DNA of 64,000 bases from positions 1 through 64,000 of IMG/VR virus record IMGVR_UViG_2791355120_000002; one strand, 5' to 3'. Each line of letters starts with the position of its first letter. The first letter of the stretch is position 1. Positions 1 to 37,179 of the stretch are shown piece after piece. The notes below the pieces were generated by a model. That model did no database searches and had not been told where the DNA came from. It saw only the letters and a list, made by a program, of their open reading frames with translations. The position numbers and the translations under genes are program-made. The DNA is from a virus (taxonomy: Duplodnaviria > Caudoviricetes).

Positions 1-1191
1 ATGCCTTTGACCGACATCCAGTGCCGCAACGCCAAGCCTAAAGCAGACGGATCGCCGTCCAAGTTCGCAGACGGCGGCGGTCTCTTTCTCGCGGTAACGC
101 CGGCCGGTGGCAAATACTGGCGCATGAGTTATCGCTTCGACGGAAAACAGAAGCTGCTCTCGTTGGGCGAGTATCCGGGCGTCTCGCTTGCGCAGGCGAG
201 GGCTTTGCTCGATGCCAACAAGCGGACCTTGAAGGCCGGCAAAGACCCCGCCGAGCACAAGGTAGCCGCGATCATGGGTGGCCTAGACGGCTTCGAAACG
301 GTTGCCCGCGAATGGCTCGAAGCACAGAAGCCGGCGTGGGTTGCCGAGCATTATCAGCGCGTGCTCGGTCGCTTCGAGAACGACGTGTTCCCGGCGATCG
401 GAAAGATGCGCTGCCGCGACATCCAGGCTGCGAAAATCCTCGAAGTGCTGCGCGAGGTTGAGAAGCGCGGTGCGCTCGACGTGACCAAGCGCATCCGCCA
501 GTCAATCAGCAAGGTCTTCCGCTACGCTATCGCAACGGAGCGCGCCGACCGCGATCCTGCTGCCGATCTGGTAGACGCGTTGAAGGCGCAGCCGAAGGTC
601 AAGCACATGGCCGCGCTCGAAGCCGATCAGATCGGCGAGTTCATGACGAAGCTGCAAGCCTATGACGGTGAGCGACAGACGCGCCTGGCCATCGAACTGA
701 TCATGCACACGATGCTGCGCACCAACGAGCTTCGCTTCGGCAAGTGGAGCGAGATCAAGGATGACCACTGGTTGATCGACGCCGAGCGCATGAAGATGTC
801 TCGCGACCACAAGGTTCCGCTGACCAGGCAGAGCAAGGCAATCCTGGCCGAACTGAAAACCATTGCTGGCGACTCTGACTGGATCGTGCCCGGCGCTGGC
901 GGTCAGAAGCCGATCAGCCAAAACACGATGATCTTCGCGCTCTACCGCCTCGGCTACCATAGTCGCCTGACCATCCACGGCTTCCGGTCGACGGCCTCAA
1001 CGGTGCTCAACGAGTCCGGTCTATGGAGCCCCGACGCGATCGAACGGCAGCTTGCTCACGTCCACGGCGACAAAGTGCGATCCGCTTACAATCGCTCAGA
1101 ATATTGGGCCGATCGCGTGAAGATGATGGAGTGGTGGAGCAATTACCTGACCGAGCGCAATTCGAATGACCTGACGGCGCTGCTAGCCTAA
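1..1191 (+). CDS. int: Tyrosine recombinase, P4-like phage integrase
   Basis: N-terminal arm-binding domain (DGGGLFLAV..GGKYWR..YRF.GK), catalytic R (LRTNE), HGFR, LAH and Y (AYNR). Confidence 0.95.
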   Translation: MPLTDIQCRNAKPKADGSPSKFADGGGLFLAVTPAGGKYWRMSYRFDGKQKLLSLGEYPGVSLAQARALLDANKRTLKAGKDPAEHKVAAIMGGLDGFETVAREWLEAQKPAWVAEHYQRVLGRFENDVFPAIGKMRCRDIQAAKILEVLREVEKRGALDVTKRIRQSISKVFRYAIATERADRDPAADLVDALKAQPKVKHMAALEADQIGEFMTKLQAYDGERQTRLAIELIMHTMLRTNELRFGKWSEIKDDHWLIDAERMKMSRDHKVPLTRQSKAILAELKTIAGDSDWIVPGAGGQKPISQNTMIFALYRLGYHSRLTIHGFRSTASTVLNESGLWSPDAIERQLAHVHGDKVRSAYNRSEYWADRVKMMEWWSNYLTERNSNDLTALLA

Positions 1192-1668
1192 CAGGCTGCT
1201 CAGATCGTTCTCCCATCTCGGCCAAAGATTGTCGAAAGGGCGGTCCACCTTCTTGGCATATTTGAGGCAGTTGAAAGTGCCGCCCCATGAGCCGTCCCAA
1301 AGAGCGCACATCTTGTTCGCTCGGTCCACCATCCACTCGTTGCGCTTCTGCATTGCGCGGCTGCCAGGAATATCGCTGACGACGTAGACGGACGCGGCCT
1401 TGGACAGGAGCGCTTCGAGCCGTCGCCGGCTCTCGGGCGGCCACCGCGAATCGTGCCCCTTGAAAGGCACGGCCGCGATGAGCGGAATGCCGAGTTCAAC
1501 AGCACCCTCCGCGAAGGCTTCGTCCCACCCGAGCGCCATGCCGCTGACCGCCTGCTCGGGCAGTTCGGCTGCCAGGTAGTTCATGGCCAGTATGCGCAGC
1601 GCCACGCGAACGTCTTCCCCGTATCCGCCGAGCTTGGGCGGCCGGTGCCCTGTCGCCGCAATGATCAA
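1183..1668 (-). CDS. SLOG/YspA-like (DUF1273) nucleotide-binding protein
   Basis: TGHRP, SGMALGWD, RNEWMVD and ALWDGS.GGT motifs. Confidence 0.85.
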   Translation of the reverse strand: MIIAATGHRPPKLGGYGEDVRVALRILAMNYLAAELPEQAVSGMALGWDEAFAEGAVELGIPLIAAVPFKGHDSRWPPESRRRLEALLSKAASVYVVSDIPGSRAMQKRNEWMVDRANKMCALWDGSWGGTFNCLKYAKKVDRPFDNLWPRWENDLSSLLG

Positions 1669-2330
1669 AGCCGCTCGGCGAACGTGCGGATAACCCTAAA
1701 CGACTCAATGTCTGCCATGCGAACCTCGTAGCCGTTTGCCTTGCGCGTTCCCACCTTCTCGATCGTCGGCCAGTCGAGTTCGTAGATGACGACTTGGAAA
1801 TCCGGCATCGGGATCACACCAAGCGTGACGGTGCCGTTCCGCGTCTCGGGCGGAATGAGGAAATACTCGCGTTCACCGACGATCGGCGTCACGTGCAAGC
1901 GGTAGTGAGCCCCACGGATGATGGCGTACAGGTTAACGTTGTTGTCTTTCGCAACCTGGTCTGTGTCTTCGGGGAAGGACGGGTGGCCACCATCCATCTG
2001 AATGAAGCCGGCCACGACATTGACAGCGCCGCCAGCGACGACGTTTCGAGTTTTGCGCTGAACCTCGCTCAACTCGGGCGAAGTGCCGGCTGCAAGCCAG
2101 CCCGCATCGACCTTCAGTATCTTAGCCAGGGCCGTCTGCGGCGCGCGGCGCGGAAGCGTCTCACCGGCAAACCATTTGCGAACAGTCTCTGCGGCGACTT
2201 CAACGCCGTGCTGAGCGAGTCTTTCGACGAACCAGCCGAGGCGGCCGTAGTTCAGGGGCGGTACATCTGGATTGCCATCGCAGGCCTGTTCCAGGCGGCG
2301 AGCAAAATCAGGGTGTGCGATATCCTTCAA
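1665..2330 (-). CDS. HTH transcriptional regulator, probable prophage repressor
   Basis: FARRL...ETVRKWFAGETLP...LAKILKVDAGWL Xre-like HTH; TTG start with an AAGGAG SD; operator-like site upstream. Confidence 0.75.
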   Translation of the reverse strand: MKDIAHPDFARRLEQACDGNPDVPPLNYGRLGWFVERLAQHGVEVAAETVRKWFAGETLPRRAPQTALAKILKVDAGWLAAGTSPELSEVQRKTRNVVAGGAVNVVAGFIQMDGGHPSFPEDTDQVAKDNNVNLYAIIRGAHYRLHVTPIVGEREYFLIPPETRNGTVTLGVIPMPDFQVVIYELDWPTIEKVGTRKANGYEVRMADIESFRVIRTFAERL

Positions 2331-2400
2331 GCAAATCTCCTTTTCTCAACTCTCGTACCGCCAAATCACTTTCGCCCACTGCATCTGAGTCGAGAAATGT

Positions 2401-2418: not shown

Positions 2419-3906
2419 TCAAGTGTGGAGCGTGAAATTTCTGATAATACGGTCCTGCGTTGCATCCTTAGCGTTGAGGATAGTTAACGCACGCTCGTCA
2501 TACGTGCCTTCTGCGATGATCGGATATATCAAAACTTGCTCAGTCTGTCCCGGTCTCGGAAGTCGAGCGTTTGCCTGCAGCCACAACTCAAGCGAGAATG
2601 TGAGACCGTACCAGGCGGCGATGTGTCCTCCGTATTGCAGATTCGTGCCGTGCCCGATAGATGCCGGATGAGCGAGCAGCATCTTGATTTTCCGCTGATT
2701 CCATAGGGTCACAGCGTCCTTGTTCTCATTTGCGACGATCGCATGAGGGTAGCGCTTGCGGATCGCGTCCTTGTCAAACTTAAAGCTGTAGAAAACCAGA
2801 AGGTTCTCCCCCTGAGCGCTCTCAACGAGTTCTTCGAGAGCGCCCATTTTGGCGTCGTGAATGTGCACGACCGAGCGATCTTCCTTATAGAGATGACCAT
2901 TAGCGAATTGCAGAAGCTTGTTCGCAAGCACGCCGTTGGACACCGCTTGAACGTCATACGGTTCACTGAAAAGTGTTTTTTCGAACTCCCGATAATCACG
3001 CATTGCGTGATCCGGCAGCCGCACCTTCATCGGAATGAAGCGCGGATCAGGGACGACCTTTTCCTGCGGGATCGTGACAAGCAGGTCGTGCAGCCGTTCG
3101 AGGATTTCCTTCTCGGCATATGACCGTGGCGTGACTGTGTGCGTACGCTGGTCCTTCTCGAACCAGCGGCGCTCGAAGTCCGACTTGTCGCGGCCGAGGC
3201 GCTGCCCCTGATCGAGCAGATATGCCTGGCCCCACAGGTCTATGAGCCCCTGCGGTGCCGGCGTGCCGGTCAGTTCAACGATGCGGCCTATCTTACGCCG
3301 CGCGGTCGTCATGATCCCGAAGCGCGTCTGCTTGCCGCCCTTGCGAACGCGGATCGTGATCTCGCCAGCCGCGTTGACGGTCTTGACCTTGGTCGCCTTC
3401 GTGCGGCCCTCGCCGCTCTTGAACCGGCTCGACTCGTCGATGACAACTGTGTCCCAGTACCAGTTCTCGACTGTGCGGATGTGCTGCGCGAGCCAGCTAA
3501 GGTTTTCGAAGTTGATGGTGGTGATTTCGGCACGGCGCTTGATGGCCGCAGCACGTTCCTCGGGCTCGCCCACGGCCACCGCATATGAAAGCGCTCGCGT
3601 GTGCTGCCATGCCCCGATCTCGTCAGGCCAGGTATTAGCCGCGACGAAGTAAGGTGCGATGACTAGGACGTGCTGCGCCTCGAACCGGCTTAGCAGGTCA
3701 TAGAGCGCGTCCAGCGTGGCGCCGGTCTTGCCCGAGCCCATGGCCGAGATGACGAGCTTCGCGGAGCTACCTTTGATGATGTCGGAGATTAGCCGCTGCG
3801 TCGCTCGCATGTCGGAGCGCGGGCGGATCGACGGGCCACCATAGTGTCCGATCGACGGCGGCGGCTCGTCGGCGAGCAGGTCCGACAGGTCGAAATCGAA
3901 GTCCAT
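2419..3906 (-). CDS. SNF2-like SF2 helicase
   Basis: MGSGKT Walker A, IDESS, LTGTP, HPASIGHGTNLQ and QANARL.R motifs. Confidence 0.92.
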   Translation of the reverse strand: MDFDFDLSDLLADEPPPSIGHYGGPSIRPRSDMRATQRLISDIIKGSSAKLVISAMGSGKTGATLDALYDLLSRFEAQHVLVIAPYFVAANTWPDEIGAWQHTRALSYAVAVGEPEERAAAIKRRAEITTINFENLSWLAQHIRTVENWYWDTVVIDESSRFKSGEGRTKATKVKTVNAAGEITIRVRKGGKQTRFGIMTTARRKIGRIVELTGTPAPQGLIDLWGQAYLLDQGQRLGRDKSDFERRWFEKDQRTHTVTPRSYAEKEILERLHDLLVTIPQEKVVPDPRFIPMKVRLPDHAMRDYREFEKTLFSEPYDVQAVSNGVLANKLLQFANGHLYKEDRSVVHIHDAKMGALEELVESAQGENLLVFYSFKFDKDAIRKRYPHAIVANENKDAVTLWNQRKIKMLLAHPASIGHGTNLQYGGHIAAWYGLTFSLELWLQANARLPRPGQTEQVLIYPIIAEGTYDERALTILNAKDATQDRIIRNFTLHT

Positions 3907-5164: not shown

Positions 5165-5500
5165 TCATACGAGCAGCATCTTGGTCTTCAGAAACTCGAT
5201 GGCTTCGGCGCCTGTATAGAAGACGTGGACGGTCACGCCGACATCGGCCAAGCGCTTGAACTCTTGCTCCTGACCCTTCGACAGTTTGCCGTCGCGCGAG
5301 CGCGTCTTGCCGCGCTTCTTCATCTCGATCGGGATGATATGCCCGTAGCCGAAGAAGAAGCGATCCGGGCAGCTATGGCGGCCCTGATACTGCATCTTTC
5401 GCGCGATCCAGCCGTTGTTCTCGGCCCACGCAACCACGTCGAGTTCTTCATTGGCTTCGAGGGTGCGCGTGCTGAAGTCGAAGTCGTCGAGCACTTTCAT
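5165..5500 (-). CDS. VRR-NUC domain nuclease
   Basis: PDR...IEMK...LS.GQ PD-(D/E)xK pattern; lies between polymerase and helicase as in Chi-like phages. Confidence 0.85.
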   Translation of the reverse strand: MKVLDDFDFSTRTLEANEELDVVAWAENNGWIARKMQYQGRHSCPDRFFFGYGHIIPIEMKKRGKTRSRDGKLSKGQEQEFKRLADVGVTVHVFYTGAEAIEFLKTKMLLV

Positions 5501-5772: not shown

Positions 5773-5921
5773 GATGACCCCTTCAGTTTTGAAAGGCAGC
5801 GGCGGCAGGTCACTTGCCCAGGGGCACCAGTGCTGATGACTGCCGACATCCAGCGGCGGCCGGGTACACCGCAAAGCGACGAGGCGCCCGCCTTCCGAGC
5901 GTGAACTGCGTTCCTTTTCAT
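5769..5921 (-). CDS. Small putative zinc-finger protein (50 aa; not in the ORF track)
   Basis: Translates as MKRNAVH...SLCG...VTCRRCL; ATGA-coupled to the polymerase stop and to the next start. Confidence 0.55.
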   Translation of the reverse strand: MKRNAVHARKAGASSLCGVPGRRWMSAVISTGAPGQVTCRRCLSKLKGSS

Positions 5922-7954
5922 GCTGCCATCGCCCACGTTGCGTAGAAGGCAATCCGATTGGCCTTCGTCAGGCGAAGCGGTTTGCGAGGTTCAACAATCG
6001 GCCCGTAGAAGCCGAGATCGGTGAGAATGCTTTCCGCCTCGGCGATGTAGCGGGCGTAGTCGATGTCTGCGGGGAACTCGTCGGGCAACCTCATGCACTC
6101 GATGGCGCCCTCGGTTTTCGGCACCTTGGCGAAGTTGCCGGTAGTCTCGTGCGGCTTCGCCTTGAAGATCGGCTCACCGTCGATGCCCCAATAATAGCGC
6201 ACCGTCTTGCCGAGATATTGCCCGCGCCAGGTCGCGCCGCCCGCTGCCTTGATGACCGTGACGAACTGCTTGATGTCGCGGCAGTTTCGAATCGTCACTT
6301 CGACAGGCGTGCCATTCTTGATCTGCATCAGCGCAGCGTCCGAGCAGATCGTCGCCTGCGGGTTCTTCATCAACTGACCGCGCACCGGATCGAAGTCGTC
6401 GATGTGCTCGCTCCATGGATTGCCGAGCGGGCCTTTGCGCTTATGGCCACCGTCCTGCTTGATCGCGAAGTAGGAGTTGACCGACTGGTTGTAGATCGCC
6501 TGGTACTGACCAAATTCGAGATCGAGCGTGGTGTCGCGCTCCCACTGTTCGCAGATATCGGCAAGCAGCGACGACTTCAAACGGTCGCCGTCGACCCCCG
6601 CATAGTGCTCACGCGGGCAATAGAACATGACGCCATCGGTGTTGCCGCTGACGACCTTGATGCCCGCGCGCTCGGCGCGCTCGATCAGCATCAGCAGCGT
6701 CAACTGCCCGGTAAGCGTGACCGAGATCAGCAGGTGCGGCGCGTAGAGCACGCTATGCCGGCTCCCGAGCTTCCCGTACACGCCGTTGAGGGCGATCTTG
6801 AAGCCCTTGTCCTTGACCTTGCAGCTTTCCAGTTCGGCTTCGAGGGCCTTTTTCCGGTCGGGATCGTTGACCTTTTTCAGTTCATCCTTGATTTCCTTGG
6901 ACCGCTTTTTCGCCTTCAGGCGCTCGGCCTTTATCTCGCGATAGACTTCCAGGAAGTGGGCGCCGAGAGCCTTCGGGTAGAGGCCGAGCAGCAGAATGAT
7001 CGCCGGGTACTGCGATGCCACGTCAGCGTCGACTAGGACGTGGGTCTCATTGGACTTGAGAGCCCTGTTGGCCTCGGTCGAGTGGAGCCCGCCGATACCC
7101 ATCTGGTAGGTCGTGTCGCCGATCGTGATGGACGTTTCCGCCAGCCACTTCGGCATGTCGACCTTGCCCTCGTCGGTGATCATGAAATCGGTTTCGCGGA
7201 GCCGATCGACGATCGCCTGCAACTCGGGCGTCTCGAACTTCATGAAGTCGGGGATCGGATAGCGGAACGTCGTGCCGGCCTTGATCGAGGCTTTTTCCGG
7301 CCGGCTGCCGCTCAATTGCTCGACGCGCGTCTTGACGATCATCTCGCCGATCTGCGCGTCCGACTTCGACATGAAGTTCTTGCCGTAGTGCGGCCCGAGC
7401 GCGCGGCGCAGTTCGAGCGGTTCGGCCAGAGCGTTCCAGAGATTGTGCGTGGCGTCGAGATCGGAATGCAGGCAGTAGTTGGCGACGATATCCATCTGCT
7501 CGTCGCTGAGCCGCATGTCTGGGTCGAACGGCAGGTCTTGCAACTGCTTGCCGTGCATCCGCCCGTTGAGCGTCTTGAGGCTGGCAATCGCGTTCGGCTG
7601 CGGCTCAATCAGATCGATGTGACGCTGCTTAAGTTCGAACGGAATGCGGATGCCGAGAAGGTCTTCAACCTCCCACCACGGCACCCTGCCCCGGATGATC
7701 CGATCGGACGCGGCCTTCAACTTCGCAGGCGTCACGTCCTCGTCGAGCGAGTACCAGATCATCGGCAAGTCGTAGGGCAGGCTATTGAAGCCCACCGACG
7801 TGTTGCGCATGAGCACGCTGCGCACATAGGCGCGGTCGTAGTCAGGCCGGCGCCGGCTGTACTCGACCCCGACGCGCTTGCCGTCTTCCTCGCGCTTGAA
7901 GCCGATGTAGAAGAAGTCGTGATAGCACTCAATGTCGGTGAAGATGGTGCTCAA
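5918..7954 (-). CDS. DNA polymerase, family B type
   Basis: Exo I DIE, DADVASQYP (motif A), KIALNGVYGK (motif B), SGNTDG (motif C). Confidence 0.92.
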   Translation of the reverse strand: MSTIFTDIECYHDFFYIGFKREEDGKRVGVEYSRRRPDYDRAYVRSVLMRNTSVGFNSLPYDLPMIWYSLDEDVTPAKLKAASDRIIRGRVPWWEVEDLLGIRIPFELKQRHIDLIEPQPNAIASLKTLNGRMHGKQLQDLPFDPDMRLSDEQMDIVANYCLHSDLDATHNLWNALAEPLELRRALGPHYGKNFMSKSDAQIGEMIVKTRVEQLSGSRPEKASIKAGTTFRYPIPDFMKFETPELQAIVDRLRETDFMITDEGKVDMPKWLAETSITIGDTTYQMGIGGLHSTEANRALKSNETHVLVDADVASQYPAIILLLGLYPKALGAHFLEVYREIKAERLKAKKRSKEIKDELKKVNDPDRKKALEAELESCKVKDKGFKIALNGVYGKLGSRHSVLYAPHLLISVTLTGQLTLLMLIERAERAGIKVVSGNTDGVMFYCPREHYAGVDGDRLKSSLLADICEQWERDTTLDLEFGQYQAIYNQSVNSYFAIKQDGGHKRKGPLGNPWSEHIDDFDPVRGQLMKNPQATICSDAALMQIKNGTPVEVTIRNCRDIKQFVTVIKAAGGATWRGQYLGKTVRYYWGIDGEPIFKAKPHETTGNFAKVPKTEGAIECMRLPDEFPADIDYARYIAEAESILTDLGFYGPIVEPRKPLRLTKANRIAFYATWAMAA

Positions 7955-8280
7955 ACCAGCAAGCCCTCGTCGCTCGAAAGGACGCCTGCGCCGGTCAGGA
8001 CCCGAAGACTTCTGTCATCGATCTCCGGCTCAACAACCTCCCACTCGTAGTTTTTGCGGGTCGGTCCCCATCCACGGCCGAAGTTGAGTATCGAGATCAC
8101 GTCCTCGGTCGACAGGATGCCCGCCTCAGCAAGCCGCTCGATCATCAACCGAGTGGCAAAGACGTGCGCCATACCAACGGTATCGCCCACTGCCTCGAAC
8201 AGGGCGTCGCGGAGGGACATTCCGGGGGAGTTGGAGTAGTCGTCGAGCGGCCGTTGGCGGAACTTCTGCATGGCGGTCAC
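7951..8280 (-). CDS. Hypothetical protein
   Basis: Overlap-coupled ORF in the operon. Confidence 0.6.
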   Translation of the reverse strand: MTAMQKFRQRPLDDYSNSPGMSLRDALFEAVGDTVGMAHVFATRLMIERLAEAGILSTEDVISILNFGRGWGPTRKNYEWEVVEPEIDDRSLRVLTGAGVLSSDEGLLV

Positions 8281-8873
8281 GCAAGCAGGTCTTCGAGCGA
8301 GTCAGCGGCAACCGGCTTCGGTGCAACGTCTCGCTTGCCGCGCAGGGCCTGCCAGTAGAAGGAGACCCACTTGGCCTGGTGGGTGGCATCGTCGAGCGCC
8401 GTGTGTGCGGTGCCTTCCAGAGTGCCTGTGTACTGCGGGCCGTTGGCAGCCAGTTCTTTGATCGTGCGGCAGTCACGCACGTTCCAGAAATCCCACGGCG
8501 CAGGCTTATCGAGAATGCGGCCGAAGGCATATTCGAGAATGGTGATGTCGAACGATGAGCCGTTACCCCACGGCTTAATTCCGGTGCCGTGCTTCCGGCA
8601 GAACTCGTGGAACTTCTCAAACACGAGTTGAGCCGAGTGGCGACCGCGCACGACCTTCTGGCGCGCTGCCTCGCCCTGGTTGAGCCACCATTTCAGCGTT
8701 GAGCCTGAAACGCGGCCGTAGCGCACTGCGTCTTCCAGGTCGATCGCCGCGTCAAAGGTCTCACCAAGGGCGCCCGTATCGGGATCAAAATAGATTGCAC
8801 CGATAGCAACAACAGGCGCATTCGGAGCAGTGCCCATGGTCTCCAAGTCGATCATGCAGTGAGTGAATTTCAT
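8277..8873 (-). CDS. DEDDh 3'-5' exonuclease (Rv2179c/DUF5051-like)
   Basis: MIDLETMG, WGNGSSFD, RDCRT and HTALDDA.HQA motifs. Confidence 0.9.
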   Translation of the reverse strand: MKFTHCMIDLETMGTAPNAPVVAIGAIYFDPDTGALGETFDAAIDLEDAVRYGRVSGSTLKWWLNQGEAARQKVVRGRHSAQLVFEKFHEFCRKHGTGIKPWGNGSSFDITILEYAFGRILDKPAPWDFWNVRDCRTIKELAANGPQYTGTLEGTAHTALDDATHQAKWVSFYWQALRGKRDVAPKPVAADSLEDLLA

Positions 8874-8933: not shown

Positions 8934-9599
8934 TCAGAAGTCGAAGTCGTCGGACTTGGGCTTGCTCGACGCGGACGAGCCGCTGTCGAAGCTGTCGTCA
9001 TCCTCCATGTCGTCGAAGTCGTCGGCGTCGACATAGATGCCGCCGCCCATACGCTCGCCTTCCTGGTGAGAACGGATAGCCTCGACCGAGGCAAAGATGC
9101 CGCGCGAGCCCTTATCGGTGCCGAAGAACGACACGATCACGTCGGCGTAGCAGCCGCCGTAGAACACATCGAGAATGTCCTTTTCCTCAACCGGCCGCTT
9201 GTGACGATCGAGAAGTTTCGGACGCTTCTGGCCTGCGGACGGTCCTGACGCCGAGAATGCAAAGTTGCCTTCATAGCCGGCATAAACCTTGTTCTCCTTG
9301 TTCTTGAACTTCTCGCCCTTCTTGAAGCAGACACGCTTCGGATTATCCTCCGCGATGTCCTTGTAGGCATCGGGATTCTTCCACTCCTTTTCGCCGGCCT
9401 TCTTCATAGCGCCGATGATCTTGTCCTGGTTCGCCTTGAAGTGCGGACCCGACGCTTCGTTGATGACGTTCAGGCCGTGCTTCGGCTTCGCATTGGGATC
9501 ATCGCTCGTCTTCTTCTTCTCCAGCAGAGAGTCGGTGAAGGAGAGACGCACGCGCTTCAGTTGGACGGTGCGGCCGTCAGATTTGTCTTCAATTGCCAT
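8934..9599 (-). CDS. Single-stranded DNA-binding protein (DUF2815-like)
   Basis: VRLSF, FYGGCY and GERMGGG motifs; acidic tail ending DDFDF. Confidence 0.85.
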   Translation of the reverse strand: MAIEDKSDGRTVQLKRVRLSFTDSLLEKKKTSDDPNAKPKHGLNVINEASGPHFKANQDKIIGAMKKAGEKEWKNPDAYKDIAEDNPKRVCFKKGEKFKNKENKVYAGYEGNFAFSASGPSAGQKRPKLLDRHKRPVEEKDILDVFYGGCYADVIVSFFGTDKGSRGIFASVEAIRSHQEGERMGGGIYVDADDFDDMEDDDSFDSGSSASSKPKSDDFDF

Positions 9600-13055: not shown

Positions 13056-13222
13056 AGTGTCTCCTGGACGTTGATTTAAAATCACGCAAAACGTGAATGC
13101 ATCGTCGTTAAAACACGTTTGAAGGCACGTTTCAAGCCCGGTGTGCAAAAATTTCACGTTTAACTTGATTTTATGAAGCCGGGCGTCTAAGGTCGGGTCA
13201 AATCCAGCCAAGGGGATGCGAT
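13056..13222. promoter_or_regulatory. Divergent promoter region with two operator-like sites
   Basis: AT-rich; TCAC-GCAAAAC-GTGA at 13082-13096 and TCAC-GTTTAAC-TTGA at 13154-13168. Confidence 0.7.
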
Positions 13223-13589: not shown

Positions 13590-16097
13590 ATGGCAAGTGC
13601 TCCCACGCTCGACGGCGTGCTCGATTCCGTCCGCCCTCTGATCGAGGCCGGCGCGTCGCTGCATTGGTTGGTCCCCTTTGAGAAGCGGCCGATCGAAAAC
13701 GAATGGTCGAAGGCTCCGTTTCAGGACGAAGCCGCGCTCCGCAAGTCCTATCGTAGCAACGCCAACATCGGCATCCGGCTCGGCGAGCCGTCGAAGACCG
13801 ATATTGGCTACCTGCATCTGATCGACCTGGACATCCGCAAACCGGAACTCGCCGCCGAGGCGTGGGCAAAGCTGCTCGAACTCTGGCCGGCAGCGCGGTC
13901 GTTCCCCACTGGCATCAGCGGATCAGGCGGCGAAAGCCGCCATATCTATTTTCTGACCGACAAGCCGTTCCCAAAGAAGAAGCTCGCCAAGTCCACCAAC
14001 TTCACGATGGTGTGGGACGCGCAGAAGGAGCGCGAGGTTCGCAAATACGATTGGGAGATCGACCTTTACGGCACTGGCGCGCAAGCGGTGCTGCCACCTT
14101 CGATCCATCCGAATACCCGCCTGCCCTATCGTTGGGAACGGCCGCTCGAACTCGATTTCCCGATGATGATGGAGATCGGCTCGTCACAGGTCGAAGCATG
14201 GGGCGTCAGCGCCGCGTCGGCGCAGCCGGAAGACGATGAGGACGACCTTTTCGCGCTCTTGCGCGCAACGCCGATGGACCTGGCGCCCGAGAAGATCGAC
14301 GAGATCATGCGCGATCTGCCGGCCGATTGGGTCGACGATCGTGACCAGTGGTTGACAGTCGGCGCCGCGCTGCATCACCAGTTCGAGGGAGCCAACGCGG
14401 GCTTCGAGCGGTGGAACGAATGGGCGAAGCAGTCGCCGAAGTTCGACGCCAAGGACTCGGCGCGCGTTTGGAAGTCCTTCAAGGGCTCAAAGAATCCCGT
14501 CCGCATGGCGACGCTGATCCAGGCGGTGCAGACGAAGAAGCTCGCTCTCGACCTCGGTCTCGACGACGATGACGACGGTTTCGATTTGCCAGCCATCATT
14601 CCCGCCGCGTCGAGCAACGACCTTTCCGACTTGCTCGGCACCGACACCAATGACCTTTCCGACCTGCTCGGCGGCTCCCCCCAACCTGCCGCGAAAGCGG
14701 ACAAAAAGGATGCCGTTGACCCTGACTGGTTGAGCAAGCTGCACCGCAACGAGGAAGGCGAGATCAAGAGCACCCTTCCGAACGTCGCCCTGATCGTTGA
14801 TTGCGATCCGCGCACGCGCGGCATTGTCGCCTTCAGCGAGTTCAAGCAGACGGTTGTGCTGCGTGGCACCGGTCGCAAGGCATCACGGAAGCGCGACTCA
14901 GGACACGATCCGGTCAATCTCGACGGCCGTCTGTGGGAAGTGCAGGATGAACTCAACGGAGACAGTTGGAGCGACAGCCACGACTTCGCGGTGCGCGCCC
15001 TTATCGAGAGCAAGACGCAGTTGAAGGGCTACGGGATCAAGGTCACTGACCGCGATCTCAAGGGCGGCATCGATATGGCCGCGCAGCGGCGCCGCTTCCA
15101 TCCGGTCAAAGAACTGATCGAATCGGTAACATGGGACGGCACCCCGCGCGCCGAGACCCTGTTCATCGACTATCTCGGCTGCGACGACAACCCCTATTAC
15201 CGCCAGGCGTCGTTGATGACCCTAGTTGGCGCTATCGCCCGCGTATATCGCCCCGGCCACAAGTTCGATTTCGTGCCGATCCTCGAAGGCGTGCAGGGCA
15301 AAGGCAAATCCACTTTCATCGAAATTCTCGGCCTGCACTGGTACAACGAACTCACTGGTGAGATCAGCGATCCGAAGCAGATGATCGAGGCCATGCAGGG
15401 CTCGTGGATACTGGAAATCGGCGAACTTTCAGCAATGCAGCGCTCGGAAGTCAACGACCTCAAGGCGTTCGTCAGCCGCACCCATGACAAGGCCCGCCTT
15501 GCCTTTGCCAAGCGCGTTCAGGAATACCCGCGCCAGTGCATCTTTATCGGCTCGACCAATGACCGCGAGTACCTGCGCGACGCGACTGGTGGTCGACGCT
15601 TCTGGCCGATCGTCTGCAACCTGGAAGGCCAAATCGATAATCCCCGGCTGCGCCGGGAAATTTTGCAGGTGTGGGCCGAGGCGCTGCAAATCTTCCGCGA
15701 CATGGAGAAGCGCTACCAGGGCGCACCGTTGCCGCTATTCCTGACCGACGAGGCGGCCAAGACGGCACTCGTCATGCAAGAAAGCCGCCGCGTCGAGAGC
15801 GCGGAAGACATCCTTGCTGGCCAGATTGCGGCTTGGCTCGAACAGCCGATCGGCACCGATGAGCGATTCGACGATCTGGACGTGGACGCCCCGAAGGTCT
15901 ATCGCCAGGAGACCTGCATTCGGGAGATTTGGGAGGCCATGCTAGGCCGCGACGGCGCGATTCCGCAGACCGAGAACGTGAAGATCGGCCGCGCCATGCT
16001 TCAAGTCGGCTGGCCGCGCTCTGCCGGCGTCCTGCACGGGCGGGAAATCAACAAAAAATGGGGCAATTGTCGCGTCTACACGAGACCTGAGAAATAG
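13590..16097 (+). CDS. Primase-polymerase / PriCT-2 / VapE-type helicase
   Basis: NIGIRLG, DLD, H.YF and LPPSIHP (prim-pol); DRDQWL.VG.ALH (PriCT-2); LEGVQGKGKST, EIGEL, GSTN and TGGRRFWP (VapE). Confidence 0.92.
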   Translation: MASAPTLDGVLDSVRPLIEAGASLHWLVPFEKRPIENEWSKAPFQDEAALRKSYRSNANIGIRLGEPSKTDIGYLHLIDLDIRKPELAAEAWAKLLELWPAARSFPTGISGSGGESRHIYFLTDKPFPKKKLAKSTNFTMVWDAQKEREVRKYDWEIDLYGTGAQAVLPPSIHPNTRLPYRWERPLELDFPMMMEIGSSQVEAWGVSAASAQPEDDEDDLFALLRATPMDLAPEKIDEIMRDLPADWVDDRDQWLTVGAALHHQFEGANAGFERWNEWAKQSPKFDAKDSARVWKSFKGSKNPVRMATLIQAVQTKKLALDLGLDDDDDGFDLPAIIPAASSNDLSDLLGTDTNDLSDLLGGSPQPAAKADKKDAVDPDWLSKLHRNEEGEIKSTLPNVALIVDCDPRTRGIVAFSEFKQTVVLRGTGRKASRKRDSGHDPVNLDGRLWEVQDELNGDSWSDSHDFAVRALIESKTQLKGYGIKVTDRDLKGGIDMAAQRRRFHPVKELIESVTWDGTPRAETLFIDYLGCDDNPYYRQASLMTLVGAIARVYRPGHKFDFVPILEGVQGKGKSTFIEILGLHWYNELTGEISDPKQMIEAMQGSWILEIGELSAMQRSEVNDLKAFVSRTHDKARLAFAKRVQEYPRQCIFIGSTNDREYLRDATGGRRFWPIVCNLEGQIDNPRLRREILQVWAEALQIFRDMEKRYQGAPLPLFLTDEAAKTALVMQESRRVESAEDILAGQIAAWLEQPIGTDERFDDLDVDAPKVYRQETCIREIWEAMLGRDGAIPQTENVKIGRAMLQVGWPRSAGVLHGREINKKWGNCRVYTRPEK

Positions 16098-29317: not shown

Positions 29318-29496
29318 TGGCGCGCATCAAGATCACGCCGAAGCCACTGCTCGATTTTGCGACCACCGTCATGGCTGACAATGGGAAGCCCGAGCCCGCT
29401 TATCACCAGGCCAATGGTTGGGTCTGCAAGGTCTGGTTCGATGAGCGCAACGCCATCGCCAATCACATCATGCGAGAAGGAATTTTCCTCCCATGA
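29317..29496 (+). CDS. Hypothetical protein
   Basis: Coupled ORF. Confidence 0.55.
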   Translation: MARIKITPKPLLDFATTVMADNGKPEPAYHQANGWVCKVWFDERNAIANHIMREGIFLP

Positions 29497-30011
29497 CTTG
29501 CATCATCGGACTCATCGACAAGGGTCGCGTCTGGATGGGCGCGGACAGTTCCGCCAACTTCGAAGGCGACGAGATCGAGACGTGGGTCAATCCGAAGGTC
29601 TTCCCGAGCGGAGAGTACCTGATCGGCTTCACCGGCTCGTTCCGCGTCGGCCAGCAATTGCAGCACGGCAACCATTTCAAGCCGCTGCCGGCTGGCCACG
29701 ACATCATGGCGCACCTGGTCACGGTGGTGATGCCCGACCTGAAGAAGGTCGTCGGCAAATCTGCGCCTGATGAAATGCTCATCGCCCACGGCGGCAGGCT
29801 GTTCAAGGTGGGTGCCGAGTATGTCGTGTCCGAGCACACCAACTATGCGGCCGTTGGCACGGGCAAGACGTGGGCTCAGGGAAATATGCATGGCGGCAGC
29901 GGAGAGCCCTCATCGCGCTTGCGGCGCGCCCTGTCAGCCGCGCAGGCGCATTGCAGCAGCGTGCGCGAGCCATTCGTTGTGCAGGTATCAACCAAGGAGA
30001 CGGACCAATGA
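29493..30011 (+). CDS. HslV/proteasome-beta-like Ntn-hydrolase
   Basis: N-terminal (M)TCIIG, MGADS, PKVF, IGFTGS and AVGTG; size close to HslV. Confidence 0.75.
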   Translation: MTCIIGLIDKGRVWMGADSSANFEGDEIETWVNPKVFPSGEYLIGFTGSFRVGQQLQHGNHFKPLPAGHDIMAHLVTVVMPDLKKVVGKSAPDEMLIAHGGRLFKVGAEYVVSEHTNYAAVGTGKTWAQGNMHGGSGEPSSRLRRALSAAQAHCSSVREPFVVQVSTKETDQ

Positions 30012-30136: not shown

Positions 30137-30561
30137 TTCTTGATCGCTACTGCGCACCGCCGCCACCTGTCCCCGCGCGGCCGAAGAAGCCGCCGACCAT
30201 CGATATCGAACGGGAGAACCGCAACATGCATTTCATTTTCGACTGCGACGGCGTGCTGCTCGACTGGACGCGCGGCTTCCGTCATTGGGTCTTCGCCGCC
30301 CACGGGATCAAGCCGAGCGCCAGCGGGCCGCGCTCATGGTCTCTGTTCAGTTGGCTTGGACTGCCCGAGGCGCGCTGCTTCGAACTCATCCAAGAGTTCA
30401 ACGCTTCGCAGGCCTTCGGGGAACTCTACGCCCTGCCCGGCGCGAATGACTGCATCGCCAAACTCAAAGCGCGCGGCGGCTGGACAGTGAGCAAATCGAT
30501 CGCGGGTGCCGGCAACGTGGCCGAATACCGGCTTGAAGCGCGCCCAAACATTCACGTTTAA
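30133..30561 (+). CDS. HAD-family 5'-nucleotidase-like protein, apparently truncated or fused
   Basis: FIFDCDGVLLDW motif I; later HAD motifs absent. Confidence 0.6.
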   Translation: MILDRYCAPPPPVPARPKKPPTIDIERENRNMHFIFDCDGVLLDWTRGFRHWVFAAHGIKPSASGPRSWSLFSWLGLPEARCFELIQEFNASQAFGELYALPGANDCIAKLKARGGWTVSKSIAGAGNVAEYRLEARPNIHV

Positions 30562-30566
30562 CGTGA
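30552..30566. promoter_or_regulatory. Consensus operator palindrome
   Basis: TCACGTTTAACGTGA. Confidence 0.75.
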
Positions 30567-30583
30567 TTTACAAGGAAACAACT

Positions 30584-31003
30584 GTGAAGTCCAAACCTGA
30601 ATTCCACCACCCTGGCCTGAGCGAAACCGAGTTGAAGGCCTTCGAGGGCCTGCGCGCCGCGCAGCAGCTTGCGCACGAGACCGCCACCAACGCCGGCTGG
30701 TACACCGACCGGGAAACCGGGCAGCCGATCGAGCGCAACTTCGGCGAAGTGGTCGCGCTCATGCACTCGGAACTGTCCGAGGCGCTTGAGGCCGATCGCA
30801 AGGGCAAGCGGCAGGACGACAAGCTGCCGTGGCGCAATGCCGTCGAAGTCGAACTGGCCGATTGCGTCATTCGCATCTTCGACACGGCGGCAGCGCGTGG
30901 CTACGACCTGGCCGCCGCCATTCTCGACAAGAATCGCTTCAACCGCGAGCGGGCCGACCACAAGTTGGAGAACCGGCTGCTGCAAGGCGGGAAACGCTAT
31001 TGA
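30584..31003 (+). CDS. MazG-like nucleotide pyrophosphohydrolase
   Basis: ALMHSELSEALEA.RK, EVELADCVIRIFD and K..FN..R motifs. Confidence 0.85.
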   Translation: MKSKPEFHHPGLSETELKAFEGLRAAQQLAHETATNAGWYTDRETGQPIERNFGEVVALMHSELSEALEADRKGKRQDDKLPWRNAVEVELADCVIRIFDTAAARGYDLAAAILDKNRFNRERADHKLENRLLQGGKRY

Positions 31004-31425: not shown

Positions 31426-31653
31426 GTGAGCGAGACATTTGATTTCACCGTCGCCCTGAGTCGCATGAAGACCGAAGGTGCGAGGGTCAGACGCCGCGCG
31501 TGGAAGCCAAACAAATACGTTTGGATCAAGCCGGCCACGGCCGACAGCATGTCCTACCCCGAACTCGTCTACATCGACGGCAGCGGGCGCAGGGCTCCTT
31601 GGGGCGTCACCCGCTGCGATCTTCTCGAAGATGATTGGGAGTTCGCAGCATGA
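31426..31653 (+). CDS. DUF2829/Tad2-like protein
   Basis: F..AL..MK..G.RV.R.AW ... PW.....DLL.DDW pattern. Confidence 0.7.
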   Translation: MSETFDFTVALSRMKTEGARVRRRAWKPNKYVWIKPATADSMSYPELVYIDGSGRRAPWGVTRCDLLEDDWEFAA

Positions 31654-32336
31654 CCAAGAAGAAGTCGATCTCCGTTCTGCTCGAAGAAGCGAAGGCTCAC
31701 ATCGCAGCGATGTCACCTGAAGAACGCGAAGCCATGTGGCAGGCGCAGCGCGAGAGTTGGGTGCGCGGTGAGATGGCGATGGGCGAGTCGAGCCTCGTTC
31801 TCAAAGCCCACGGGCCGAGCGGGGAAATGCGAAACACGCATCTGCTCGACTGGCTATCGGATGGCTACACCCACTGCAGCTACGGCACGAAGGAATGGTG
31901 CGAGCGTTATCTGAACAACGCACGGGCGGTGATCATCGCGCAGGATCGCACCCTCTCCACCGCCGTGGCCTTGTGCGACTGGCACATAAACTCGGCCGTG
32001 CGGTGCAAGGACGCCTACAAGAACGGCGTGCCCATGGACATCGTGATCCAGGACTATCGGGAACTGCGCGAGAGCATCGCGGCGCTCGGCGACAAGCTGG
32101 AGCCATGGGTGCCCGAGCCGCCTTCCGGCTGGTTCTTGAAGCGCGCTGCCCACGAGCACACGCCCATCATCTTCAACGGCGACACGCACAAGCCGGTGCC
32201 CCATTCGGAAGGCCCGTGGCTCGTCGAGTTTCAACGTCTGCCTCACGGCGGCTGGCTGACCGAGGGTCGCGGCCGAACGTTCGGTGAGGCGTGGGAGCGT
32301 GCCTGCGCTGCCGTGGCGCGGAGGGCAGCGGCATGA
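31650..32336 (+). CDS. Hypothetical protein
   Basis: Coupled ORF. Confidence 0.6.
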   Translation: MTKKKSISVLLEEAKAHIAAMSPEEREAMWQAQRESWVRGEMAMGESSLVLKAHGPSGEMRNTHLLDWLSDGYTHCSYGTKEWCERYLNNARAVIIAQDRTLSTAVALCDWHINSAVRCKDAYKNGVPMDIVIQDYRELRESIAALGDKLEPWVPEPPSGWFLKRAAHEHTPIIFNGDTHKPVPHSEGPWLVEFQRLPHGGWLTEGRGRTFGEAWERACAAVARRAAA

Positions 32337-32605
32337 GCGAGTACCATATGGCCATTCATCGCTGCGCTGAGCGCTATCGTGACATGCAGATCGCTGCCGG
32401 CGTACCGAGTACCGATCCGCTCTGGAAGTTCAACATGGAACTCATGTTCGGGTGCCGAGACGGCTTGCCCATCATGAAGTTGAACCGCTGGCTCGGCTAC
32501 ATCCAAGGGGTGCTTATCGAGCGAGGCCTGACGACTGTTCAAGCCGAGCGGGATTGGACTCGCCCACTATTCCGGCCGCTGGACTTCCCCTCGGAGGCGG
32601 CATGA
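32333..32605 (+). CDS. Hypothetical phage protein
   Basis: KLNRWLGYIQGVL...ERDWTRPLF motif. Confidence 0.7.
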   Translation: MSEYHMAIHRCAERYRDMQIAAGVPSTDPLWKFNMELMFGCRDGLPIMKLNRWLGYIQGVLIERGLTTVQAERDWTRPLFRPLDFPSEAA

Positions 32606-34746: not shown

Positions 34747-34783
34747 GCGCCACCCACCGCCATCCCAACATCTCGGAGACACC

Positions 34784-35161
34784 ATGAAACTCGGCGAACT
34801 GCGCGCGGCCATCCGCAAGACCAAGGGCAATCCTTGGTTCGACTGCTACCCCTTCCCCGGCACCGACAAGACGTTCCGCTTCTACCTGCAGAAGACGCCA
34901 CTGCTCGAAGAACTGGAAAAGGCCTATCCGGGCGGCAAGGGCGCTGAGACGCAACTGAGCTTTGACGCGGAGACCGGCCAACTCAAGCCCGAGAAGCATG
35001 ACTTCCAGGGCATCAGCAAGGACAACCCGGCAATCAAGACGCCGGCACCGCCGCATGAGGACGGCCCCGCCCCGAAGAACGATGACGATCTGCTGCTCGA
35101 CGACGAGCCCGCAGCCGCGCCTGCCAAACCTACCGACGATCTCAGCGACCTTCTGGTGTGA
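34784..35161 (+). CDS. Hypothetical protein ending DDLSDLLV
   Basis: GGGAG SD; acidic Pro-rich tail. Confidence 0.75.
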   Translation: MKLGELRAAIRKTKGNPWFDCYPFPGTDKTFRFYLQKTPLLEELEKAYPGGKGAETQLSFDAETGQLKPEKHDFQGISKDNPAIKTPAPPHEDGPAPKNDDDLLLDDEPAAAPAKPTDDLSDLLV

Positions 35162-35577
35162 CCATGGACGACGCGGAACTCGGCCTGCGACTGGTCAAGG
35201 CGCTGCGTGCCGCCACGGCTTCTAGGTTGCCCAACGGCAATCCGATCAAGGGCAAGCTGATGAGCCTTGCCCTGAACATCACGCCCGAGGATTGGCAGGT
35301 CATCGGCCAGTTCTGGTTTACGCATCACTGCAACGTCCAGTGCAGCAAAGACCCCGCTACCGCGCTGCTGACGGTGCTCGAAGCACCGCCAAACCTGACC
35401 GATCCCTATGACCCAAAGCAGCGGCTGCTGATGGCTAAGCCGGTGCTGCGGGAGCACGTCGAGTTCGTCACCGGGAAGCGTGAGCCCGAACCGTCACCGG
35501 CGCCGCAGCCGGCGCTGGCTAACTATCCGACAGCGCAGGAAGACGATGTGCTCGACCTGAGCGAACTGCTCGTGTGA
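35158..35577 (+). CDS. Hypothetical protein ending DLSELLV
   Basis: GTGA-coupled. Confidence 0.7.
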   Translation: MTMDDAELGLRLVKALRAATASRLPNGNPIKGKLMSLALNITPEDWQVIGQFWFTHHCNVQCSKDPATALLTVLEAPPNLTDPYDPKQRLLMAKPVLREHVEFVTGKREPEPSPAPQPALANYPTAQEDDVLDLSELLV

Positions 35578-35825
35578 TGCAACGCTACTCCTACGAGTGG
35601 GTAGACCCCGACAGCGGCGAGGAACATTTCAGCGATGAACTCTGTGCCATCTACGATGCGAAGCGCGGCCTTGAATTTCCCATTGCTTGGGCATGGGACC
35701 GGGACGGCGCCGAACTCATCGTTGATGCGCTGAACCAGGCTCACGAGATGACAGGCAGGGCCGCCACGCTGGTTGCGCTGGCGGTCCATCGAGACAAGTA
35801 CGATCTGAGCGATTTGCTCGGCTGA
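35574..35825 (+). CDS. Hypothetical protein ending DLSDLLG
   Basis: GTGA-coupled. Confidence 0.7.
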   Translation: MMQRYSYEWVDPDSGEEHFSDELCAIYDAKRGLEFPIAWAWDRDGAELIVDALNQAHEMTGRAATLVALAVHRDKYDLSDLLG

Positions 35826-35856
35826 CGTTTCACTTTTTACGGGACAATCACGAAAC

Positions 35857-37179
35857 ATGGGCGGCGCAGTCACACTTCATGCCGGCGACAATCGCCTGAG
35901 CCTGCGCCGGCTCATCGACCAGGGCGTGCGCGTCCATTCGGTCGTGAGCGATCCGCCCTATGCGCTCACCAGTATCACCAAGCGCTTCGGCAAGGCCGGC
36001 GCGGCTGCGGCTCGCACGCAGGGCAACGACGGCAGCTTCGCGCGCCTGTCGAAGGGCTTCATGCAAAAAACTTGGGACGCCACAGGCATCGAGCGCGATC
36101 CTGAGTTCTGGCGCCTGGTCTATGACATCCTTCTGCCAGGCGGCTACGTCTTCGCCTTCTCTGGCGCCCGCTCTGGCCACTGGCAGGCCTGTGCCATGGA
36201 GACGGCCGGCTTCATCATGCACCCGATGCATGGATGGGTGTACGGTCAGGGCTGGCCGAAGCCCACCTACATCAAGGGCCTGCCCGAGTGGGAAGGATGG
36301 GGCTACGGCACGCAGTCGCAGAAGCCAGCGCTCGAACCTATCTACCTCGGCCAGAAGCCCTTCAGCGAGAAGACCGGGCCGGCGAACGTCCTGAAACACG
36401 GCGTCGGCGCATTCAACATCGGCGGCTGCACAGTCGACGACGGGGAGAACGGTCGTAGGCCGGCCAATCTGATCCTGGACGGATCGTCCGAGGTGATCGA
36501 CCTGTTCCCGTACACGCGCAGCGGCGCGCCGGGCGTCATGCGGAAGGGCACGAACGACGGTGCAACCTACGGCGCCGAGAGCCGCGCTCCTGGCACGCCT
36601 ATGACCGGCTACGGCGATGAGGGCTCGGCCGCTCGCTTCTTCCACCAGTTCCCGCTTACCGAGGCCGACTACCGGTGGGCAATCGACGCAGGGCTCATCG
36701 GAACCGATCTCGGCGATGCGACTATCTACAATGCCAAAGCGAGCAAACAGGATCGTTTAGGCAGCAAGCACCCAACCGTTAAGCCAGTGGCCTTGTTGCA
36801 GTATCTCATCCGCCACATCACACCACCTGGCGGCGTCGTCCTCGATATGTTTGCCGGAAGCGGCACCACCGCAGAAGCCGCGCGGCGCGAGGGTTTCGAC
36901 TGCATTCTGATGGAAGCCGAGCCCGAATATCTCGACTTCCTGTGTTCACGCTTCGTTCTCAACCCGGAATATGCTATAGGAATAGATGCCTACAGCACGG
37001 TTAACGGAGCGAGAATCAATTCTACTGTATCAAAATTAGACATAACTAATGTAGCGAATAAAGAGTTGTGTCTACTTGACATCCTGGGTGATCTGGCGGC
37101 TGTAGAAAAGCGCGAGGTTCAAGTCCCCGGTACGTTTAGATCGTACTCAGGCTACGATCTGACGGAGTTGTTGTCGTAA
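35857..37179 (+). CDS. N6/N4 DNA methyltransferase (beta class)
   Basis: SDPPY precedes HPTVKP and VLDMFAGSGTT; operator-like site at 35830-35844. Confidence 0.9.
   Translation: MGGAVTLHAGDNRLSLRRLIDQGVRVHSVVSDPPYALTSITKRFGKAGAAAARTQGNDGSFARLSKGFMQKTWDATGIERDPEFWRLVYDILLPGGYVFAFSGARSGHWQACAMETAGFIMHPMHGWVYGQGWPKPTYIKGLPEWEGWGYGTQSQKPALEPIYLGQKPFSEKTGPANVLKHGVGAFNIGGCTVDDGENGRRPANLILDGSSEVIDLFPYTRSGAPGVMRKGTNDGATYGAESRAPGTPMTGYGDEGSAARFFHQFPLTEADYRWAIDAGLIGTDLGDATIYNAKASKQDRLGSKHPTVKPVALLQYLIRHITPPGGVVLDMFAGSGTTAEAARREGFDCILMEAEPEYLDFLCSRFVLNPEYAIGIDAYSTVNGARINSTVSKLDITNVANKELCLLDILGDLAAVEKREVQVPGTFRSYSGYDLTELLS

Follow-up and report, generated by a model that had tools for sequence, protein, structure and literature searches.

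Distribution of the tag

Why should one short peptide recur on a series of unrelated proteins of a single phage, and what could read it? The question is raised by the locus analyzed here, a window of 64,000 nucleotides from a 77-kb provirus of a root-nodule-type bacterium, the phage being temperate and Casjensviridae-like. The peptide, D-L-[ST]-x-L-L-x, is an acidic, leucine-rich tag of seven residues with L-x-x-L-L spacing. It was reproduced by a six-frame scan combined with ORF calling, and its carriers comprise the integrase, an SNF2 helicase, the primase, a proofreading-type exonuclease, a VRR-NUC nuclease, a DNA methyltransferase, a SLOG protein, three small proteins, the portal and the small terminase.

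The original prediction placed the motif at the exact C-terminus of six proteins, all of which were reproduced. ORF calls and the motif scan located it at 1168..1188 (+) in the tyrosine integrase (gene 1-1191) and at 1186..1206 (-) in the SLOG/YpsA-like protein (gene 1183-1668), the final 9 nt of the latter gene overlapping the integrase end on the opposite strand. The motif scan located the remaining four on the + strand, at 35138..35158, 35554..35574 and 35802..35822 in the small proteins 34784-35161, 35158-35577 and 35574-35825, respectively, and at 37156..37176 in the N6/N4 DNA methyltransferase (gene 35857-37179). A degenerate upstream copy (an acidic run, L-L-L and D-D-E-P) lies at 35081..35110 (+) in the disordered tail of 34784-35161. 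The predicted variant and non-terminal copies were also recovered. The DnaQ/Rv2179c-like exonuclease (gene 8277-8873) ends in the variant D-S-L-E-D-L-L-A (8280..8303, -), while the motif scan found the tag at residues 6-12 of the SNF2-type helicase (gene 2419-3906; 3871..3891, -), directly preceded by a D-F-D-F motif. Two internal copies, with Asp codons at 14619 and 14652, occupy the primase linker between the Prim-Pol and VapE domains (gene 13590-16097) at 14619..14639 (+) and 14652..14672 (+, motif scan). The weak forms predicted for two further proteins are present as an L-L-V end on the VRR-NUC nuclease (gene 5165-5500; 5168..5176, -) and an E-G-L-L-V end on protein 7951-8280 (7954..7968, -). 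D-F-D-F is also found near the N-terminus of the VRR-NUC nuclease.

The claim that structural proteins are free of the motif holds inside the window but fails beyond it. The portal gene (63227..64000, -, continuing to 64921 of the record) encodes the tag at residues 7-13, beyond the window, and the small terminase (record about 68118) carries it at the N-terminus. This occurrence on the portal and small terminase N-termini, as read from their sequences, is new here. The carriers therefore extend beyond replication enzymes, and the claim that all of them act on DNA or nucleotides has to be widened to these packaging proteins.

Could such recurrence arise from chance or composition, or simply follow from a repeat in the DNA? 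High GC content and an abundance of Leu, Asp and Ala mark the genome, and two of the V-ends coincide with the GTG start codon of the following gene, both of which would favor such an origin. However, the motif is the exact C-terminus in 6/86 called ORFs of the provirus against a composition expectation of 4e-4, and at any position the strict motif was observed 11 times in the 86 ORFs against 0.09 expected from composition. When the last 30 residues were shuffled (n = 20000), a single C-terminal match appeared in 11 shuffles and more than one in none, so that the comparison with shuffled tails went the way of the original prediction. Furthermore, synonymous codons vary from copy to copy, which means that the tag is not a DNA repeat and agrees with the earlier view that conservation lies at the protein level. 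Together with the counts and shuffles above and the conservation across diverged orthologues described below, these codon differences refute an origin by chance, composition or a DNA-level repeat, the probability of which is practically negligible.

Conservation in related genomes

An acidic L-L tail is present on the integrase orthologues of 8/8 related genomes, and the N-terminal tags of the portal and of the small terminase are each found in 8/8 orthologues, as anticipated for a motif that homologues keep. The primase linker motif is retained in 6/8 orthologues and the helicase tag in 2/8, while 5/6 VRR-NUC orthologues end in L-L or L-L-V. In RcMrWorf, the exonuclease orthologue ends in E-L-L-I and another protein shares the E-G-L-L-V ending of 7951-8280. 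The orthologues of 35158-35577 in AR07 and G006 end in D-D-L-L-V. The tag also ends methyltransferase-like ORFs of the relatives L019, G006 and AR07, that of AR07 giving no tblastn match to the methyltransferase gene of the window. Across the window and its relatives the residue following L-L is variable (A, G, V, S, N, Y) or missing, some tags of relatives terminating directly in L-L. By the conservation among orthologues and the codon differences between copies, the analysis shows the tag to be under selection at the protein level.

The 34784-35161 family illustrates how the tag is presented. Of its homologues, 55/63 have an acidic L-L(V) tail at the C-terminus, with D122, L123 and L124 nearly invariant, and the linker is hypervariable, differing in both length and sequence. 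The pLDDT of the AF2 model is 85-95 for residues 1-70, 64 for residues 71-80 and 46-61 for residues 81-125, and the model thus shows the tag at the end of a predicted disordered linker.

The tag does not appear to belong to the host. In a related host genome, that of Mesorhizobium sp. AR07, the back-translated pattern gave 6 matches versus 12 for the reversed control, and only 2/6 of the matches lay at called-ORF ends, both inside the prophage. The host scan that had been proposed therefore confines gene-end copies in AR07 to the prophage and, at the level of pattern matching, shows the tag to be phage-specific. Its position is free. In the related phage Enc34, the SSB and primase have one acidic tail (a D/E run plus V) in common with four further proteins, and this family tail is C-terminal on the small terminase, where the clade studied here has an N-terminal tag. 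The occurrence at opposite termini of one protein, as compared in sequence, shows the tag to be portable between N-terminus, C-terminus and internal linkers.

The tag is a local, more elaborate form of a habit of the phage family, in which acidic tails of the SSB type, hydrophobic at the tip, occur on many proteins. D-L-V (8), D-L-L (6) and L-L-G (6) are common ends in a set of 150 representatives of the T7-type SSB family, and an SSB and primase with a common tail also occur in several loci. In the polymerase-module loci with at least two acidic tails (n = 31), the last residue was common to 27/109 within-locus pairs versus 13.4 +/- 3.4 in shuffles, a value reached in 8/10000 shuffles, for ORFs crudely called and loci related to each other. 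This sharing of tail tips suggests a genome-specific reader. An acidic run with a hydrophobic end at the extreme C-terminus characterizes 7-9 C-terminal copies, but not those on the portal, terminase, helicase and primase.

Comparison with known terminal peptides

On balance, the tag is probably a short linear docking motif on flexible tethers, a common handle for unrelated DNA-transaction proteins. The tags would bind in trans to one receptor, which would concentrate the tagged proteins on phage DNA during replication and packaging, as clamp-binding ends do in T4 and acidic tails in T7. The original prediction had offered a docking motif or a degron; the docking part is supported, with a tag that is selected, portable and borne on variable linkers, whereas the degron part, as far as it turns on the phage HslV-like peptidase, is not.

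A degron for a host AAA+ protease (ClpXP, ClpAP, Lon or HslUV) would schedule the removal of the carriers. Ends of the ssrA type are nonpolar C-termini, which the nonpolar L-L-A, L-L-V and L-L-G of the C-terminal copies loosely resemble. Most carriers are early or regulatory proteins, and A-A ends are also enriched (8 ORFs versus 1.1 expected), which suggests that the phage uses terminal signals. Such a function is nevertheless unlikely, since the motif is conserved at the N-termini of the portal, a stable virion protein, and of the small terminase, as well as within the primase linker, and since the residue after L-L is so changeable. N-terminal and linker copies, together with tags ending in L-L, argue against any reader that requires the C-terminal carboxylate in a fixed register.

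The same reasoning bears on the idea that the tag is an HslU-type activation tail read by the host HslV or by the phage peptidase. The likeness is close: host-type HslU ends in T-D-L-S-R-F-I-L, with D-L-S, one free residue and then two hydrophobic residues, and the stretch from Asp to the C-terminus measures seven residues in both. According to PMC4106860, the octapeptide E-D-L-S-R-F-I-L from the E. coli HslU end is alone able to activate HslV. Moreover, an Ntn peptidase in which T2, D18 and K35 are invariant is encoded in the window, and its model (pLDDT 90.7) best matches BPH and HslV. However, position -3, where PMC4106860 calls an aromatic residue strictly conserved in prokaryotic HslU, is Leu in 7/7 C-terminal tags of the window, the last residue is variable, and the N-terminal, internal and L-L-ending copies have no carboxylate in register. 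The peptidase was not found in the RcMrWorf or AR07 genomes (for AR07, by one query), although both bear tags, and tags occur in only 2/80 viral loci of the peptidase family, both close relatives. With two tagged relatives in which the peptidase was not found and 78/80 loci untagged, the tag and the peptidase show no co-occurrence, and a role of the phage HslV-like peptidase as the hub is not supported. The HslU-type function is very improbable, and the attractive link between the tag and a phage proteasome-like peptidase is corrected here as unsupported.

For the docking motif, the closest parallels come from T4 and T7. The statement that the tag is not a described system holds only in part, since hydrophobic-acidic terminal epitopes common to several proteins are known in T4 (clamp) and T7 (polymerase). 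According to PMC2988020, a review on T4, the hydrophobic-acidic C-termini that bind one clamp can be exchanged for one another and sit on linkers that vary. The epitopes of gp43, gp55 and gp33, which bind gp45, are likewise short terminal peptides on unrelated proteins, joined by divergent flexible linkers like the hypervariable, low-pLDDT linker of the 34784 family, and the gp33 end T-L-D-F-L-L has the L-x-x-L-L spacing of the tag. They differ in having an aromatic residue, missing from the tag; here, the clients also include the integrase, methyltransferase, portal and small terminase, and copies lie at N-termini and in a linker. No gp45-like clamp or loader was detected in the window proteins that were scanned with Pfam/PHROGs, several of which received no assignment.

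In T7, the acidic C-terminal tails of gp2.5 (SSB) and gp4 (helicase-primase) dock on the gp5 polymerase. These tails end in an aromatic residue and require a free C-terminus; here, the leucine pair is the anchor and position is free. The phage has an SSB of the T7 gp2.5 type (PF10991; 8934..9599, -), a class whose structural homology is stated in PMC5686142. Its acidic tail, the reference for this type of tail, ends in D-D-F-D-F, and the C-terminus of the primase bears no tag, so a tail common to SSB and helicase-primase does not occur in the window. Because of this different SSB end, the T7/Enc34 logic of a tail shared with the SSB is not strictly valid here. The T4 gp32 end, D-L-D-D-L-L-N-D-L, closely approaches the consensus of the tails in the 34784 family, with the difference that this stretch belongs to the SSB itself. 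In gp32, PMC11551737 assigns Dda binding to a helix at residues 248-270 and not to the tip.

The bacterial beta-clamp motif has the consensus Q-L-[SD]-L-F or Q-L-x-L-x-L. It is similarly a short leucine-rich peptide, found at N-termini, C-termini and internally on many DNA-enzyme clients. The tag differs in lacking Gln, in having one more residue between the hydrophobic positions and in its acidic flanks; the distinction drawn earlier is upheld by the absence of Gln and the different spacing. The canonical clamp pattern gave only 3 matches, none of them in phage replisome proteins.

Candidate receptors and possible action in cis

From the distribution of the tag and the above analogies, we infer a common hub for the carriers. 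The phage DNA polymerase (phrog_1252; 5918..7954, -) is tentatively ranked first, at a low probability, since it is the only core replisome protein that is never tagged (tag in 0/8 orthologues) and by analogy with T7 gp5. The host beta clamp follows as a somewhat more doubtful candidate, and the groove of the T7-type SSB is more doubtful still; the rest of the probability falls to the large terminase or another protein. There is no obvious reason for the portal, small terminase and integrase to dock on the polymerase or SSB.

Alternatively, each acidic tail might work in cis, on the DNA-binding surface of its own protein, and need no common receptor. The tags would then be autoinhibitory DNA mimics that fold back and sharpen specificity. 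All carriers assigned to a family act on DNA or nucleotides, the three small ones belonging to no known family, and a basic R-G-R-P stretch lies about 20 residues past the small terminase tag. For the Enc34 SSB, PMC5686142 reports that ssDNA/dsDNA discrimination is lost without the tail, which occupies the groove of a neighbor in the crystal, and PMC11551737 assigns the extreme acidic C-terminus of T4 gp32 to an ssDNA-binding function. However, mimicry of DNA in general would not call for a fixed D-L-S-D-L-L, its leucines nearly invariant, on proteins of unrelated fold, and the within-genome sharing of tail tips is easier to explain with one reader. Autoinhibition in cis is accordingly considered rather improbable.

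Biological significance

The replisomes of T4 and T7 are wired by shared terminal peptides, but the number of proteins concerned is no more than two or three. In this phage, about a dozen, from integration, replication, repair, DNA modification and packaging, carry one defined peptide, conserved across a clade of Rhizobiales and Rhodobacterales phages. If docking does take place on one partner, that partner would organize the whole infection cycle, and the peptide would serve both to find it, as an affinity handle, and to bring cargo to phage DNA, as a portable tag. A further, speculative step is that one receptor gathers the proteins of replication, recombination, methylation, integration and packaging, with the portal and small terminase among them, into a single DNA-bound factory, with the phage polymerase, the host beta clamp or a protein still to be recognized as the possible reader of the tag. 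If true, such a factory would represent a phage-wide address system, wider than the T4 clamp toolbelt, physically coupling replication to packaging and to the machinery of lysogeny.

Recurrence of the Tag in the Provirus

A seven-residue acidic, leucine-rich peptide, D-L-[ST]-x-L-L-x, recurs on unrelated proteins, and every tag listed in the original prediction was reproduced by a six-frame scan combined with ORF calls. The exact motif forms the C-terminus of six ORFs, the exonuclease ends in a variant of it, the helicase opens with it at the N-terminus, the primase linker contains two copies, and two further proteins end in weaker L-L-V. The window covers the first 64 kb of a 77-kb IMG/VR provirus. 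In the 86 ORFs called over this full length, the strict motif was observed 6 times in the C-terminal register against 4e-4 expected, and 11 times at any position against 0.09 expected. These 11 copies are distributed over C-termini (6), the primase linker (2) and N-termini (3). The proposed comparison with shuffled tails placed the motif far above chance, as no trial with shuffled 30-residue tails gave more than one match and 11 of 20000 trials gave that one. Moreover, synonymous codons vary among the copies. Chance recurrence is given a negligible probability. Two of the three N-terminal strict copies lie beyond the window end, one in the portal, encoded at 63227-64921, and one in the small terminase. 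The carriers are therefore not only DNA-metabolism enzymes, and the earlier view of them has to be widened to take in packaging proteins.

Gene overlaps were also observed at tagged ends. In two tags the terminal valine codon, GTG, serves at the same time to start the gene that follows, within a GTGTGA overlap at 35158 and 35574, which may explain valine as the last residue of those two tags. The integrase and SLOG genes are convergent with a 9-nt overlap (1183-1191), where the same bases are read on both strands, each encoding leucine, then alanine or glycine, and a stop codon.

Relatives and Conservation

The replication module of the provirus is of the Casjensviridae-like siphovirus type, comprising a Prim-Pol/VapE primase, an HTH protein, a DUF2800 Cas4-like nuclease, a T7 gp2.5-type SSB (PF10991), a DnaQ-like exonuclease, a polymerase (phrog_1252), a VRR-NUC nuclease, an SNF2 helicase, a repressor, and an integrase. 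Among cultured phages, those of Rhodobacter capsulatus are the closest, for example RcMrWorf (polymerase identity 69%); among genomic sequences, the closest is a prophage in Mesorhizobium sp. AR07 (77%). The host is probably Mesorhizobium, because homologues of several window proteins carry that name. A dATP/dGTP diphosphohydrolase N-domain (PF18909; 33630-34169, plus strand) and a MazG-like pyrophosphatase (30506-31003, plus strand) are also encoded, which may reflect nucleotide-pool editing or modified DNA.

Protein clusters were built from eight related genomes; besides the record of the window these are the AR07 prophage, RcMrWorf, and five proviruses from IMG/VR. All eight integrases have an acidic L-L C-terminus, and D-[LF]-x-D-L-[LIMF] is present at the N-termini of both the portal and the small terminase in all eight. 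The motif is kept in the primase linker in 6/8 and at the helicase N-terminus in 2/8, while VRR-NUC ends in L-L(V) in five of six; the polymerase is tagged in none of the eight. An acidic L-L(V) C-terminus is found in 55 of 63 database homologues of the small tagged protein at 34784-35161 (plus strand). In the alignment of this family the terminal Asp-Leu-Leu is near-invariant and the preceding linker varies in length and sequence. Furthermore, the AF2 model of 34784-35161 gives pLDDT 85-95 for residues 1-70 and 46-61 for residues 81-125, so the family tail is built like a short linear motif attached by a flexible tether. The N-terminal domain of this family is well folded, yet a PDB search at E up to 0.001 gave no match to it. 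In Enc34, a more distant family member, a D/E run followed by E-V ends six proteins (primase, ORF3, Cas4-like nuclease, SSB, small terminase, and ORF51). The small terminase bears the tail of this phage family at the C-terminus in Enc34 and at the N-terminus in this clade, a portability that would be expected if the tag is read in trans. That the tags act in cis, as DNA-mimic tails of the proteins bearing them, is considered rather unlikely.

Outside the phage, the back-translated C-terminal pattern matched 6 times in the 8.7-Mb AR07 genome against 12 for the reversed control. Only two of these matches lie at called-ORF ends, both in the prophage, where they end the integrase and a methyltransferase-like ORF. 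The proposed search for tag-like gene ends in the host, run on this related host genome, therefore returned prophage ORFs only, with a pattern that does not admit Ile at position -2. For this reason it missed HslU, whose C-terminus (T-D-L-S-R-F-I-L) is the only similar one among host proteins. A DNA-pattern search of IMG/VR for wider distribution gave 12 stretches, about chance level, of which one (L163) belongs to the clade and three share an out-of-frame ORF.

Peptidase, HslU and Other Terminal Motifs

One form of the protease branch of the original prediction centres on a phage HslV-like peptidase. This proteasome-like Ntn peptidase (29493-30011, plus strand) retains invariant Thr2, Asp18, and Lys35 in the alignment and is predicted from them to be catalytically intact. 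Its model has a pLDDT of 90.7, with BPH (betaproteobacterial proteasome homologue) and HslV as the best PDB fold matches, and its family has at least 215 relatives in IMG/VR; no AAA+ partner was found near the gene. The peptidase is rejected as the hub, that is, the common receptor of the tag, since no copy is detectable in the tag-bearing RcMrWorf or AR07 and tags occur in only 2 of 80 viral loci encoding the family, both close relatives. A degron function of the tag is regarded as quite improbable.

A mimicry of HslU directed at host HslV was also considered. According to PMC4106860, HslV is activated by the HslU octapeptide alone, the register of which is that of the tag. However, two further results speak against a link of the tag to either peptidase: every one of the seven C-terminal tags in the window has Leu in place of an HslU aromatic residue described in the same paper as strictly conserved in prokaryotes, and the carboxylate is missing from the register in the N-terminal and internal copies and in relatives' tags ending directly in L-L. 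Such mimicry is thus held to be highly improbable.

Other terminal motifs recur as well. A-A C-termini occur on 8 of 86 provirus ORFs (1.1 expected), for example 5918-7954 (minus), 18070-18288, 25104-25649, and 31426-32605 (all plus), and on 8 of 78 in RcMrWorf (0.9 expected); they may be ssrA-like protease signals. Many A-A ends are also seen in the unrelated peptidase-bearing phages L021-L023, where a helicase-like ORF ends in D-D-[DES]-I-P-F. D-F-D-F lies at the C-terminus of SSB (8934-9599) and at or near the N-termini of VRR-NUC (5165-5500) and helicase (2419-3906), all on the minus strand; it immediately precedes the tag in helicase and is also present at VRR-NUC N-termini of relatives. 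The HTH protein beside the primase (13223-13567, plus) ends in D-L-I-P-F-F-D-L-G-D-D-L and its orthologues in I-P-F-L-P-I-P or L-I-P-F-F-G-L, the I-P-F core being similar to the bacterial SSB tail. A separate conserved tail, D-x-F-[DE]-D-L-D, marks the Cas4-like nuclease (9650-10855, minus); it is the exact C-terminus in 7/8 genomes and is followed by four more residues in the eighth (G006).

Proposed Docking and Candidate Receptors

The tag resembles known tails. T4 gp33 ends in T-L-D-F-L-L and T4 gp32 in D-L-D-D-L-L-N-D-L, and hydrophobic-acidic T4 C-termini are described in PMC2988020 as bound by one sliding clamp and interchangeable on divergent linkers. The Enc34 SSB is a structural homologue of T7 gp2.5, and its crystal shows the acidic tail lodged in the groove of a neighbouring molecule (PMC5686142). 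The commonest C-termini of the T7 gp2.5-type SSB family are D-L-V, D-L-L, and L-L-G (150 representatives); therefore, the tag would be a tail of SSB type carried by other proteins. We lean towards the tag being a trans-acting docking tag, by which the tagged proteins would dock on one common receptor at the phage DNA.

Of 78 polymerase-module loci, 31 carried two or more acidic tails, and the last residue was common to 27 of 109 within-locus tail pairs, where shuffling across loci gave 13.4 +/- 3.4 (27 reached in 8 of 10000 shuffles), a count treated as a hint only, with crude ORF calls and mutually related loci. It hints that the reader is genome-specific and hence would be phage-encoded. As the only core replisome protein that is never tagged, the polymerase would fit the T7 model as receptor, by analogy. 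The host beta clamp (DnaN) would account for the freedom of position and for the range of clients, but as a clamp motif the tag is non-canonical; no canonical beta-clamp motif was found in the replisome proteins. A third candidate is the groove of the SSB. Two possible phage clamps were rejected: the conserved family at 12564-13211 shows in alignment a low-complexity centre and an acidic tail, which do not suggest a clamp, and the "processivity factor" of Klebsiella phage Kmi2C, adjoining a related polymerase, has no Pfam family and ends in D-D-D-I-P-F in a phage without tags.

Shared tails as a kind are already known from T4, T7, and SSB tails. The six-letter motif string had no match in the literature searched, supplementary files being outside its scope. 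New here are the definition of the peptide as an L-x-x-L-L motif, its conservation at the portal and small terminase N-termini and in the primase linker, the rejection of the peptidase link, and the wide client list, which extends beyond DNA metabolism to packaging proteins.
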